A DNA stretch of 64,000 bases from Dehalococcoidia bacterium (GCA_963663235.2 CAXXNO010000012.1:192001-256000); one strand, 5' to 3'. Positions 15,306 to 19,305 are shown, counted from the stretch's first letter. Notes: generated by a model from the letters alone, not told the origin. Made by a program: numbers and translations.

Positions 15306-15760
15306 ATGCCAGTGCGGAAGCTGATGCGGGATCCCGTCGCGGATCTCGAGCGTGTGGCCGACGAGGCGCTCGGCCCGCCGGTCGTTGAGCGGATCGAGAA
15401 AGAGTTGGGCGACGCCCGCTGTTGCCGCTGATCGCCTTAGGGATGGTCGGCGCCGGCGTGGTGCTCATCGTCGTTCTGACGATCATCGCCGGGACCCTTT
15501 CCGACAACTTCGGCGCCGGCGGGGACTCAGAGCTCGCCGCGAGGACGTTCAAGCCCTGGTTCCGCATCACCTTGCTCACCGGCGCTGGGATCATCCTGGC
15601 GGGCATCCTCACCATGCTGCTCGCCATCATCGTGCGGATCTGGTGGGTGACGTTTACCAACATCAACTACCTGCCGGTGATCGTGGACGCGCGCCGTCAG
15701 GCCGCGGGCCGGCCGGCCCGGTTCACGACCGACAACGCGACGCGGAACGGAGAGAACTGA
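15306..15760 (+). CDS. Hypothetical 2-TM membrane protein, apparently frameshifted near 15407
   Basis: GGAG RBS and ATG 15306 read MPVRK...KELG, and the hydrophobic body continues in the -1 frame (RRPLLPLIALG...); one extra G in TTGGGC restores the frame. Confidence 0.6.
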
Positions 15761-16443
15761 TGGCCGTACGCACCGCGATCAAGCCGTCCGAGGCGTTGAC
15801 GCAACGGGTCAACGCGAGGGTGGCGGCGTTGCCGCCCGTGCACATGACCGCCATGCAGACCATGGCCACCTTCCTGTGGCGGCCGCTGGCGCTGATGGGC
15901 ATCCTGATGCTCGCCTCCGGGGCGATCATCGCCGGGGTCAGCTCGTTCCGGGTGGACGAGTTCTTCGGGCTCGCGCAGCCGGACCTCGGCGCGGAGGCGA
16001 CGTTCACCAGCATCCAGACGTGGCTGCCCGGCTACCAGTTCATGGGCATGGGCTTCCTGTTTGCGGCCATCACCATGGTGGTGGCGTCGCTCCTGGGCCG
16101 GCTGCGGATCCTTGGCGGCACGGTGCAAACCTCGCTGGGAGCGCAGGTCAGGTTCCCGCCCTTCCCGATGACGGCACGGATCTTTCCGCTGCTGATGCTC
16201 CTCGGCTTGATGGTCTTCATGGCCCAGCTGGGCGTCAGCGCCTGGCTGGCCACGGAGGCGAAGAGCGGTGACCTGCTGACGGTGGCCACCCACGCGGACT
16301 GGCTGCAGGGCATGCGGATCGCCGGGGTGGGGATCATGCTCGCCGGCATCGCGCTGGCCCTCTTCACCATCACCGGCCTGATGCGCTTCATGGCGCGGCG
16401 CGTGAGCGAGGTGGCAATCCAGGCGATCGAGGCGGACTCGTAG
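15760..16443 (+). CDS. Hypothetical 4-TM membrane protein with internal repeat
   Basis: TGATG coupling; two W-x7-GxG-x2-[LF]A[GA]I units. Confidence 0.8.
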   Translation: MAVRTAIKPSEALTQRVNARVAALPPVHMTAMQTMATFLWRPLALMGILMLASGAIIAGVSSFRVDEFFGLAQPDLGAEATFTSIQTWLPGYQFMGMGFLFAAITMVVASLLGRLRILGGTVQTSLGAQVRFPPFPMTARIFPLLMLLGLMVFMAQLGVSAWLATEAKSGDLLTVATHADWLQGMRIAGVGIMLAGIALALFTITGLMRFMARRVSEVAIQAIEADS

Positions 16444-16472
16444 GACGGGATGCCTGGTTCCCTGGCAGCGGT

Positions 16473-16490
16473 GGCGTCGACCTCGACGCC
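16473..16490 (-). promoter_or_regulatory. Putative SECIS hairpin for the second Sec, in the 3' UTR
   Basis: GGCGTCG-AGGT-CGACGCC on the minus strand, 13 nt after TGA 16506-16504. Confidence 0.65.
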
Positions 16491-16491
16491 G

Positions 16492-16809
16492 TCAGCGATG
16501 CGCTCAGGTAGGTCCGTGCACGTGGGCGCGCATGGGCTCCACGTCGACGGCGAACCACTTGAAGAAGAGGAAACGATTCAGGCGCAGGTCAACGCCCTTG
16601 GCCCATTGCACGAGCCGGAACGACAGGAGGATCTGGAGGCCATCCTGCTGGACCACCTGATAGCGGGAGGTGTTCTTGCCCTTGAGGTAGGTGTCGACCG
16701 ACACCTCCGGCTTGCCGCCTCAGCCGATGGGTGGGATGAAGTCGATGGCCATCGTCCCACCTCGGCGTTGCACCTCGTCGATCACGTCCGTGGTCAAGGT
16801 GATCTGCAT
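16492..16809 (-). CDS. Small HesB/CC-Se-like selenoprotein with two candidate Sec residues (TGA 16720-16722 and 16504-16506), 105 aa
   Basis: GGAGG RBS; MQITLTT...IDFIPPIG-U-GGKPEVSVD...YQVVQQDGLQILL...AHVHGPT-U-AHR-stop; each TGA has a hairpin 13 nt downstream. Confidence 0.8.
16689..16706 (-). promoter_or_regulatory. Putative SECIS hairpin for the first Sec
   Basis: AGGTGTC-GGTC-GACACCT on the minus strand, 13 nt after TGA 16722-16720. Confidence 0.78.
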
Positions 16810-16973
16810 GAGTGCCTCCGCGCGCCCGCAGCGGCCGCCGTCTTGCCATACGCCCGCGGCGTGCCGGCGGATGTGGGCTGGGCTCCGGCCTAGATTATCA
16901 TCGGGATGGTTCAGTTTCGACGTGCGCGCTGAAGCGCGCACAGGCTCAGTGGAGGACGCGGAAGGGAGGACCT

Positions 16974-18182
16974 ATGGAACGAATACGAATGTACGGCGCC
17001 CCTTGGTGCCCGGACTGCCGCCGCGCCAAGGCGTTCTTGAGCGAGCATCGCGTGCCCTACGACTGGCTCGACGTCGATCACGACGCCGAGGCGCTGCGCT
17101 ACATCCAAGAGCTGCAGAACGGCGGCCGCAGCATCCCCATGCTGTTGTTCGAGGACGGCAGTTCTCTGGTGGAGCCGACCAACGAAGATCTTGCGCGCAA
17201 GTTGCATCTCAAGCTGGAAGCGGAGCGATCGTTCTACGACCTCGCCATCATCGGCGGCGGCCCCGCAGGGCTCGCCGCAGCCATCTACGCCGCCCGCGAG
17301 GGCATCGGCGCGATCGTCATCGATCGGAGTGCCCTGGGGGGCCAAGCAGGCGTGACCGATCGGATCGACAACTATCCGGGTTTCCCGGAGGGCATTGGCG
17401 GGGCCGAGCTGGCGGAGCGCTTCGTGCAGCAGGCTCGGCGCTACGGCGTCGAGTTGGTCTCAGCCGTCGGCGTGGATGAGGTCAGCACGGAGGAGCAGGA
17501 CGTGCTGCTGCGCCTCAGCAGCGGCCAGACGATCTGCACGCACGCGGCGATCGTGGCGACCGGATCAGTGTATCGGCGGCTGGGAGTGCCCGGCGAAGAG
17601 GATCTCATCGGCGCCGGGGTTCACTTCTGCGCAACCTGCGACGGGCCTTTCTACAAAGGGGCGGAGGAGTTGCTCGTGATCGGTGGGGGAAACTCCGGGA
17701 TGGAGGAAGGCTTGTTCCTCTCGCAGTTTGCGGAGCGGATCCGCGTGGTCGAGTCTTCGCCGGAACTCAAGGCGTCACAGCTGCTCCAAGACAAGGTCCG
17801 CGCCCACCCGAAGTTCAGCGTGCACACCAATACCCAGGTGATCGAGATCCGCGGCGAAAGGAAAGTGGAGGAGGTCGTGGCGCGGGATCGCGAGAGCGGC
17901 CAGGAGTTTCACTGGACTCCCAGCGCCGTGTTCGTCTTCATCGGCCTGACGCCCAACACAGACTTCGTGAAGGGCACGCTGGACCTGGACCAGTGGGGCT
18001 TCATCACCACGGACGACACCTTGCAGACGTCGATGCGAGGCGTCTTCGCGGCGGGCGACGTGCGGGCGGGCGCCACCAAGCAGCTCGGTTCCGCCGTCGG
18101 CGAAGGCATCACCGCGCTCCTGATGGTGCGCCAGTATCTCCAGCAGCGGACGCACCTCAGCGCCACGCCGGTCAACGCGTAA
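16974..18182 (+). CDS. Glutaredoxin-thioredoxin reductase fusion
   Basis: N-terminal YGAPWCPDC Grx domain, then IIGGGPAG, CATCDG, GGGNSG and GVFAAGD; GGAGG RBS. Confidence 0.92.
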   Translation: MERIRMYGAPWCPDCRRAKAFLSEHRVPYDWLDVDHDAEALRYIQELQNGGRSIPMLLFEDGSSLVEPTNEDLARKLHLKLEAERSFYDLAIIGGGPAGLAAAIYAAREGIGAIVIDRSALGGQAGVTDRIDNYPGFPEGIGGAELAERFVQQARRYGVELVSAVGVDEVSTEEQDVLLRLSSGQTICTHAAIVATGSVYRRLGVPGEEDLIGAGVHFCATCDGPFYKGAEELLVIGGGNSGMEEGLFLSQFAERIRVVESSPELKASQLLQDKVRAHPKFSVHTNTQVIEIRGERKVEEVVARDRESGQEFHWTPSAVFVFIGLTPNTDFVKGTLDLDQWGFITTDDTLQTSMRGVFAAGDVRAGATKQLGSAVGEGITALLMVRQYLQQRTHLSATPVNA

Positions 18183-19098: not shown

Positions 19099-19305
19099 AT
19101 GCCCACGTACCAGTTTCGTTGCAAGGACGGCCACGAGTTCGAGCGTCTCATGTCGTTCGCCGAATTCGACCGCAGCAAGCGGGTGCGCTGCCCGGAGTGC
19201 AAGAAGGGCGCGACGCGCGCGCCGGGGGGCTTCCTGTCCTTTAACAGCAGCCAGACGCCGCTCAAGGCGGGCCGACCGCAACAGACCCGCTACCACCCCT
19301 GGTAG
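19099..19305 (+). CDS. FmdB family zinc-ribbon protein
   Basis: MPTYQFRC..GHEFE...CPEC. Confidence 0.85.
   Translation: MPTYQFRCKDGHEFERLMSFAEFDRSKRVRCPECKKGATRAPGGFLSFNSSQTPLKAGRPQQTRYHPW

Follow-up and report, generated by a model that had tools for sequence, protein, structure and literature searches.

A gene with three in-frame TGA codons and two hairpins

The window analysed in this study is a stretch of 64,000 nucleotides from a Dehalococcoidia bacterium (GCA_963663235.2 CAXXNO010000012.1:192001-256000), in which positions are counted from the first letter. On its minus strand lies a gene that we read as encoding a protein with two selenocysteine (Sec) residues. The minus-strand frame reads MQITLTTDVIDEVQRRGGTMAIDFIPPIG-TGA-GGKPEVSVDTYLKGKN...EPMRAHVHGPT-TGA-AHR-TGA, which translates as MQITL...IPPIG-U-GGKPEV...HVHGPT-U-AHR-stop when its first two TGA codons are taken as Sec. 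A candidate selenocysteine insertion sequence (SECIS) follows each of them, one inside the open reading frame (ORF), the other in the 3' untranslated region. The parts of the gene are listed here, A2 being a 42-sequence alignment.

16815-16819, minus strand: Shine-Dalgarno-like GGAGG read from the sequence, with the ATG 5 nt further on
16492-16809, minus strand: predicted double-selenoprotein coding sequence of 105 residues, with ATG at 16809, Sec30, Sec102 and stop TGA at 16494-16492
16720-16722, minus strand: TGA of putative Sec30 (codon 30, site 1) in the motif G-U-G-G; Cys in full-length homologues and an invariant column of A2
16689-16706, minus strand: putative SECIS 1 within the ORF, 7-bp stem and loop GGUC (RNAfold), encoding part of E-V-S-V-D-T-Y
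16504-16506, minus strand: TGA of putative Sec102 (codon 102, site 2) in the tail H-V-H-G-P-T-U-A-H-R; Cys/TGA alternation in relatives and an invariant column of A2
16492-16494, minus strand: probable true stop TGA (codon 106), four codons past the Sec102 codon; the frame closes in relatives and homology ends there
16473-16490, minus strand: putative SECIS 2, stem GGCGUCG/CGACGCC and loop AGGU, all 3' of the stop (RNAfold, relatives, covariation)

Folding with RNAfold placed the first hairpin (stem 16706-16700 with 16695-16689) 13 nt past the first UGA, and the second (stem 16490-16484 with 16479-16473) 13 nt past the second UGA and 1 nt past the third. In a repeat search, 16473-16480 and 16483-16490 came out as a perfect inverted repeat of 8 nt, which corresponds to hairpin 2. 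The original prediction, made from the sequence alone, had described the ORF, the three TGAs, the GGAGG and the 13-nt hairpin spacing, and every detail that we checked against the sequence and by RNAfold was correct. A membrane-protein ORF that ends at 16443 converges on the gene, and no T-run terminator was detected at hairpin 2. The three TGAs are not assembly errors: all of them occur, with zero differing letters, in contigs from four runs of four studies (16440-16699 and 16682-16840), one of which is possibly the window's own source.

Cysteine and TGA alternate at codon 102

When GTDB species genomes were scanned, 92 relatives came to light; the 80 that we kept are from Chloroflexota (Dehalococcoidia) and Actinomycetota (Acidimicrobiia and Nitriliruptoraceae). 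At site 2, 34 of these related loci have TGA-x-His followed by 0-2 residues and a stop, and 35 end in Cys-x-His-stop with the same H-x-H-x-x-x-[C]-x-H tail. One locus ends in Cys-Arg-Arg-stop, nine have other tails containing Cys and one tail is cut at a contig end, while TAA or TAG at site 2 was found in none of the 80. The His at +2 is kept in all 69 loci with a TGA or Cys tail of this kind, and TGA and Cys forms each occur in both phyla. The 34 TGA forms are closed by TGA (17), TAG (9) or TAA (8), with two residues after Sec in 24 of them, three in nine and four in one; the window has three (A-H-R). We found no homology past the true stop.

Homologues align along the whole of the protein, and only seven columns of A2 are invariant (G17, G18, A21, D23, [U/C]30, Y50 and [U/C]102), with H96 and H98 kept in at least 90% of sequences. 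The HxHGPxCxH-type tail is borne by the Cys forms of this family, and the all-Cys full-length homologues (P0004-P0007, P0009 and P0015) end in Cys-x-x-stop. Within the same taxonomic family, an intact orthologue was present in three of the 100 other genomes searched. All three read ...HAHGPT-TGA-GCGCAC, closed by TAG, TAG and TGA, and their His104 codon is CAC as against CAT in the window, a synonymous difference 3' of the TGA. The alternation between Cys and TGA (35 and 34 of the 80 loci) bears out the proposal that the His-rich tail carries a second Sec.

A hairpin beyond the stop codon accompanies TGA at codon 102

We folded 55 nt from the site-2 codon and counted a hairpin when the minimum free energy or centroid structure had at least five consecutive pairs, a loop of 3-7 nt and a 5' arm 10-16 nt past the codon. 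Such a hairpin was present in 28 of 36 TGA forms and in four of 32 Cys forms (L053, L054, L074 and L083), after three of the 35 Cys forms had been left out because their downstream sequence was too short. Three further TGA forms have exact 6-8-nt inverted repeats at the hairpin position; the search that gave these, with a maximum distance of 8, missed many obvious hairpins and served as a supplement only. The stems vary by lineage (GGCGUCG, CUCAUCG, GACCCGC, CGCGCCC, GGUGCCC, CCCGCC and others), and the loops are GGU, GUU, GUC, GGUC, AGGU and similar, with GU in nearly all. In one relative with a longer tail, U-S-H-K-L (L031), the hairpin still lies 15 nt past the Sec UGA and directly 3' of the stop.

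In an alignment of 33 sites fitted to the hairpin model, compensatory changes were found at all seven pairs, and the covariation score of 0.324 was reached by none of 500 shuffled alignments (0.130 +/- 0.020) and fell to at most 0.175 with the pairing partners slid. A covariance model, R1, recovered 35 of its 36 training sites, as it should by construction, missing L034; among the 35 Cys-form sites it matched only two at E <= 5 (16.0 and 13.5 bits). The window's own site scored 18.0 bits. R1 found neither the tail hairpin of G449, described below, nor any site-1 SECIS, and gave 19 unrelated matches of 13-21 bits in 537 kb. Its noise stems from the underlying MAFFT alignment, in which 3' regions with loops of unequal length fall out of register.

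Both hairpins of the window fit SECIS criteria, with a G in the apical loop and, at site 2, about 20 nt from UGA to loop; the range given for bacterial SECIS elements in the consulted part of PMC10778597 is 16-37 nt. Comparison of the relatives thus strongly supports a reading in which the 3' hairpin acts as a SECIS and not as a generic terminator, and in which the second Sec, at codon 102, is decoded from it. The original prediction had placed the second SECIS past the true stop, and both the distribution of the hairpin and its covariation agree with that placement.

Several loci at the margin of the family were also seen. In the copy of a same-family genome (L016/L021, G001:C44:6350-6640), the frame is interrupted by three TAGs, of which one stands at the Sec30 position, and the tail has drifted to ...EHSYGPS; this decayed copy looks like a pseudogene. 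The tail of a class-level relative (L022, G449:C27, 242-553) reads ...EEDQQCLDGL-TGA-GGA-GTG-TAA (U-G-V-stop), with a Cys six residues before the Sec and a 7-bp hairpin with a GGU loop at 556-572, 11 nt past the TGA. This lone example may represent a further UXX-star form within the superfamily. Two relatives in metagenome-assembled genomes, Acidobacteria-labelled and of Acidimicrobiales (L067 and L103), have G-U-G-K at site 1 and end in ...ADAC-TGA and ...TDCA-TGA, where the terminal TGA may be either a stop or a C-terminal Sec, and folding of the sequence after the terminal TGA gave no typical hairpin in either.

Codon 30 and the hairpin within the reading frame

A profile search of 1.84 billion representatives returned 89 matches at E <= 0.001, which are mostly pieces of 62-69 residues starting just past site 1. 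A few full-length proteins of about 100 residues carry Cys at site 1 (the all-Cys homologues named above), which makes site 1 a Cys/Sec position. In public entries the family appears solely as fragments of 62-69 residues, truncated at the two TGAs; the 18 database entries that we viewed all have 64-69 residues, nine of them named 'hypothetical protein' and nine unnamed.

TGA stands at site 1 in 80 of 80 related loci, which is partly a selection effect because the search used two patterns and VDTYLKGK, the peptide encoded by SECIS 1, was among them; this bias leaves the Cys/TGA split at site 2 unaffected. The pattern V-x-V-D-T-Y was present in 36 of 36 Sec-site-1 rows of A2 and in none of the six Cys-site-1 rows, as expected if the RNA constrains the peptide. 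A 20-nt core of SECIS 1 is identical across four genera. In four metagenome runs, many other contigs match 16650-16719 (SECIS 1 and the codons that follow) at >= 90% identity, and the depth over about 50 nt within this interval reaches 10-30 times the level on either side, with several contigs breaking at this place. The SECIS-1 sequence is nearly unchanged in many organisms of those communities and behaves as an assembly repeat.

Selenocysteine machinery of the genome

The genome, of 2.75 Mb and 68% G+C, contains the machinery on which the proposed decoding depends. ARAGORN located a tRNA-Sec at C4:239791-239890, and selA (552 bits), selB (359 bits) and selD (358 bits) all score above their curated cut-offs. 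The original prediction had named TAA or TAG stops at site 2, an unconserved 3' hairpin or a genome lacking this machinery as evidence against itself; what we found is TGA or Cys at the site, a hairpin conserved in TGA forms and a complete set of genes. The selD gene has its own in-frame TGA in ...VCGG-U-GSKYG. This UGA (G000:C4; L011 1531-1560) is followed by 12 nt, a mere 4-bp GGGG/CCCC stem with the loop CUGAA and then a stronger second hairpin, so SECIS shapes differ within this genome. A 'tRNA-???' at G000:C5:159277-159376, also reported by ARAGORN, is as long as the tRNA-Sec (100 nt) and has an unusual anticodon loop, '(ca)'.

Predicted fold and family

AlphaFold2, run on A2, gave a model with a mean predicted local distance difference test score (pLDDT) of 89.8 and a predicted template modelling score (pTM) of 0.79. 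The best Foldseek matches in the PDB were SufA (2d2a) and IscA (1x0g, 1r94 and 1s98), with SufA or IscA at ranks 1-3, 5, 6 and 8 (E 1e-4 to 1e-2, TM 0.56-0.62, probability 1.0), so the protein models as an IscA/SufA-type (A-type carrier) fold. The only NCBIfam match was NF041239, the CC/Se-motif family, over profile positions 1-89 of 91 (E = 1.1e-5); the window protein scores 25.4-25.7 bits, under the 40-bit cut-off. The same profile matches 41 of the 42 members of A2 at E <= 0.01, the best at 7.9e-11. Judged by these profile matches, the protein is a divergent, below-threshold relative of NF041239. A link to CC/Se-motif and HesB/IscA-like proteins had been suggested at the outset, and the NF041239 match and the SufA and IscA structures sustain it.

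Sec30, the tail Sec102 and His96, His98 and His104 may together form a metal or cluster site, or the two Sec residues a redox-active diselenide. The His residues and the fold incline us to metal or cluster binding. The redox possibility stays in play because of all-Cys relatives that have none of these His residues.

Gene neighbourhood

Upstream of the gene and divergent from it, at 16974-18182 on the plus strand, lies a gene for a glutaredoxin-domain and thioredoxin-reductase-like flavoprotein (Grx-TrxR; Pfam Glutaredoxin and Pyr_redox_2). We compared the neighbours at six loci, which are listed below.

Window: Grx-TrxR
G005: NfuA-like divergent neighbour; isochorismatase downstream, same strand
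G003: isochorismatase-family gene downstream, same strand
L035: CAP and cytidylate kinase (unrelated)
L049: class-I flavoprotein disulfide reductase, divergent; alpha-amylase
L074: MFS and PIG-L (unrelated)

No conserved operon partner was found among the six, and gene order names no partner. The Grx-TrxR had been put forward as a possible reductant of the selenoprotein. The adjacency is real in the window, but in G003 the Grx-TrxR orthologue (70% identical) lies at 1.73 Mb and the selenoprotein gene at 0.59 Mb, about 1.1 Mb apart, and the other loci differ, so the suggestion is not supported. The divergent neighbour in G005 (L032 2149-2790) is an NfuA-like protein with an Fe-S_biosyn and a NifU domain. 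Elsewhere in the window, 19099-19305 encodes an FmdB-family zinc-ribbon protein (Zn_ribbon_8) in its all-Cys form; the FmdB family is among those able to carry two Sec according to the consulted part of PMC13188914.

Proposed decoding and alternative explanations

We propose, with a probability of about 85%, that the gene at 16809-16492 (minus strand) encodes a double-Sec IscA/SufA-like protein in which UGA-30 is decoded by the SECIS within the ORF and UGA-102 by the SECIS in the 3' untranslated region, and which has a metal or cluster site and possibly a diselenide. UGA-30 would be recoded through an ordinary hairpin, and UGA-102 through the second hairpin 13 nt downstream, which lies wholly in the 3' untranslated region because the spacer holds only three sense codons and the stop. 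SelB with Sec-tRNA would bind the GU-containing apical loop, the details of SelB loop recognition being general background here, and would deliver Sec solely to the UGA at the right upstream distance. This distance rule is drawn from the consulted parts of PMC10778597 and PMC4607533. By the time the stop UGA, 12 nt on, was reached, hairpin 2 would already be inside the ribosome or melted; the stop UGA would be read by release factor because no hairpin lies at the correct distance from it. In the protein, Sec102 would be carried by the flexible tail at the C-terminus, and Sec30 by the loop equivalent to the one that holds the first cluster-binding Cys in A-type carriers. The two Sec residues and His96, His98 and His104 would form a metal or cluster site, and the Sec pair could also cycle as a diselenide.

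Several results count against this proposal or limit it. Neither hairpin of the window out-folds shuffled sequence (RNAfold z-scores -0.98 and -0.81), and their non-chance status is argued from comparison with relatives, not from folding energy. An Rfam scan of 15500-18000 at E <= 10 gave no SECIS family, only chance snoRNA and miRNA matches, and there was no RNA run among the sequencing runs listed for the stretch. Five of the 36 TGA forms, those with neither hairpin nor exact repeat, have interrupted or mismatched stems. The hairpin counts were taken by hand from the RNAfold output by the stated criterion, not scripted. The covariation alignment, being fitted to the model, leans towards structure, and pairing holds in just 69% of its cells. 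Because the related loci share descent, the splits of 34 against 35 and of 28/36 against 4/32 exaggerate the number of independent events. On the protein side, Pfam gave no match to PF01521 at E <= 1, only a chance match to GIT_SHD, and a PDB sequence search with the family profile had no match at E <= 10. An hhalign comparison with the genome's own A-type carrier, which placed G-[U/C]-G-G on GGGCSG, was weak (E = 0.012, probability 3.5%). In the AlphaFold2 model the last 13 residues have low confidence (pLDDT 70 and 57 in the last two blocks), and because of this the model does not establish that Sec30 and Sec102 lie close together. A metal site built on His cannot apply to the family as a whole, several all-Cys relatives being without these His residues.

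Gene callers stop the product at the second TGA. If this codon (16506-16504) were the real stop, the product would end in ...HVHGPT and the hairpin would be a terminator or stabiliser between convergent genes; the convergence with the membrane-protein ORF that ends at 16443 fits such a role, hairpins after stop codons are common and hairpin 2 is energetically ordinary. The same codon, however, aligns with Cys in 35 of 80 loci and with TAA or TAG in none, a His stands two codons on in all 69 tail-bearing loci, and another in-frame stop follows within two to four codons in 34 of 34 TGA forms, being TAA or TAG in 17. The hairpin also tracks TGA rather than Cys (28/36 against 4/32), with no T-run terminator detected, and we consider this explanation very improbable. 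Two products might instead be made: inefficient or selenium-dependent insertion of Sec102 would give a mix of 101-residue and 105-residue proteins. Such a mixture fits all the comparative results, release factor and SelB compete at UGA codons in general, and termination at a UGA followed by just three sense codons costs little. Strict conservation of [U/C]-x-H nevertheless marks the full-length form as the selected product, and the UGA at codon 30 already ties all product to selenium, which leaves a functional mixture rather unlikely.

The remaining alternative concerns function and not decoding. The Sec pair may be redox-active instead of a pair of metal ligands: a swinging tail would form a diselenide with the body of the protein, in the manner of thioredoxin reductase's C-terminal redox tail, and a flavoprotein disulfide reductase would recycle it. 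Against this, the tail Sec is flanked by three conserved His residues (at least 90% of A2 sequences keep H96 and H98), as is typical of metal sites, the predicted fold is that of Fe-S carriers, and in one relative the gene is divergent from that of an NfuA-like Fe-S protein. Genes for flavoprotein disulfide reductases do adjoin the gene, divergently, in the window and in L049, two of the six loci, but this adjacency is not conserved. In favour of a redox pair, the His-less all-Cys relatives still hold both Cys residues, and the canonical CC/Se family has an adjacent CC or CU pair (G185 and G384), a role that the distant tail Sec/Cys may take over here. We regard a purely redox function as possible but on the doubtful side, and prefer the double-Sec protein with a metal or cluster site.

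Implications

Taken on its sequence evidence, this is a real, unannotated double-selenoprotein subfamily, a CC/Se-motif relative whose tail resembles the UXX-star type. It corrects the annotation of many metagenome-assembled genomes of Dehalococcoidia, Acidimicrobiia and Nitriliruptoraceae, in which the true product would have about 100 residues and two Sec, and to the natural bacterial SECIS elements that lie entirely past the stop codon it adds one with good support. One UGA would be read as Sec and a second as stop, within 9-15 nt, in half of the cases, which makes the family a handy system for the SelB positional rule and, if the proposal is true, a natural ruler for how tightly SelB and SECIS set the recoded position. 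Cys and Sec alternate at two sites of an A-type-carrier fold, a pairing that suggests a two-chalcogen active site. More tentatively, the protein may represent an undescribed IscA-fold family, widespread in Chloroflexota and Actinomycetota, that uses selenium in place of ligand Cys, with the two Sec placed on the body and on a His-rich tail and with the SECIS of the second in the 3' untranslated region. Such a family might carry metal or Fe-S(e) centres ligated by selenium.

Comparison with known systems

A-type carriers have three conserved Cys, one after strand 2 and the others in the C-G-C of the C-terminal tail. IscA, SufA and ErpA (PF01521) bear a ligand residue on a flexible C-terminal tail, as the window protein would, and the predicted fold is alike. 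Sec30, in G-[U/C]-G-G after strand 2, aligns with GGGCSG of the genome's own carrier in the weak hhalign comparison (E = 0.012, probability 3.5%), and the C-G-C of the carriers is replaced in the window family by H-x-H-x-P-T-[U/C]-x-H. The HesB-like selenoprotein model TIGR01911 gave no match for the window protein or the 42 members; the motif of the window protein is G-U-G-G and not U-x-G-P. The CC/Se-motif family NF041239, founded on a Moorella thermoacetica protein, has the same size and a Sec near residue 30; site 1 of the window reads I-G-U-G-G, without the adjacent Cys of the CC/CU motif, while the more distant homologues G185 and G384 carry R-C-U-S-G at the Sec site. The NF041239 profile stops before the tail, and the window family goes beyond it in having the [U/C]-x-H tail and a putative second SECIS. 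NF041239 is given with one Sec in the consulted part of a 2026 review (PMC13188914).

A literature search, which did not reach Haft and Tolstoy 2025 and its supplements, found no description of this family. The original prediction had considered the architecture itself to be without description, and here it went too far: the DUF466, SaoC, UXX-star, GUXX-star and UXPK-star families precede it, as the consulted parts of PMC4607533, bioRxiv 10.1101/2022.07.06.499078 and PMC13188914 show. The review covers, in the part consulted, UXX-star families 1 and 2, an HUGP/GUXX-star fusion, the UXPK-star double selenoprotein and other proteins with two or three Sec. Some of the UXX-star, GUXX-star and UXPK-star proteins (NF041114, NF041211, NF041212 and NF047649; Haft and Tolstoy 2025 via PMC13188914) are double selenoproteins like the window family, and their SECIS would lie beyond the ORF because Sec stands two or three residues before the stop. 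Compared through that review and the models, they differ from the window family in fold and motifs; the window protein matched none of the models at E <= 1, and neither did any of the 42 members at E <= 0.01. The UXX-star layout puts two residues between Sec and the stop, the number seen in 24 of the 34 TGA-form relatives; the window has three.

DUF466 of Campylobacterales, reported in 2015, has a C-terminal Sec and a SECIS after the stop according to the consulted part of PMC4607533, and SaoC has a 7-bp stem with a GGU loop 10 nt after UGA-UAG in that of the preprint (bioRxiv 10.1101/2022.07.06.499078). Both of these natural cases are predictions. As described in these parts, the KCU-star end of DUF466 and the Cys-Sec-COOH end of SaoC share with the window a natural C-terminal UGA-Sec and a short hairpin with a G-containing loop past the stop, although the proteins are unrelated and have a single Sec as the last residue and TAA or TAG as the stop. 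In the window and 17 of 34 relatives, unlike in DUF466 and SaoC, the stop is a second UGA 9-15 nt past the Sec UGA. Engineered mammalian TrxR constructs in E. coli, as covered in the consulted part of PMC10778597, establish that a SECIS placed past the stop works untranslated when Sec is near the C-terminus. That arrangement is synthetic, whereas the one in the window is natural and conserved across Chloroflexota and Actinomycetota.

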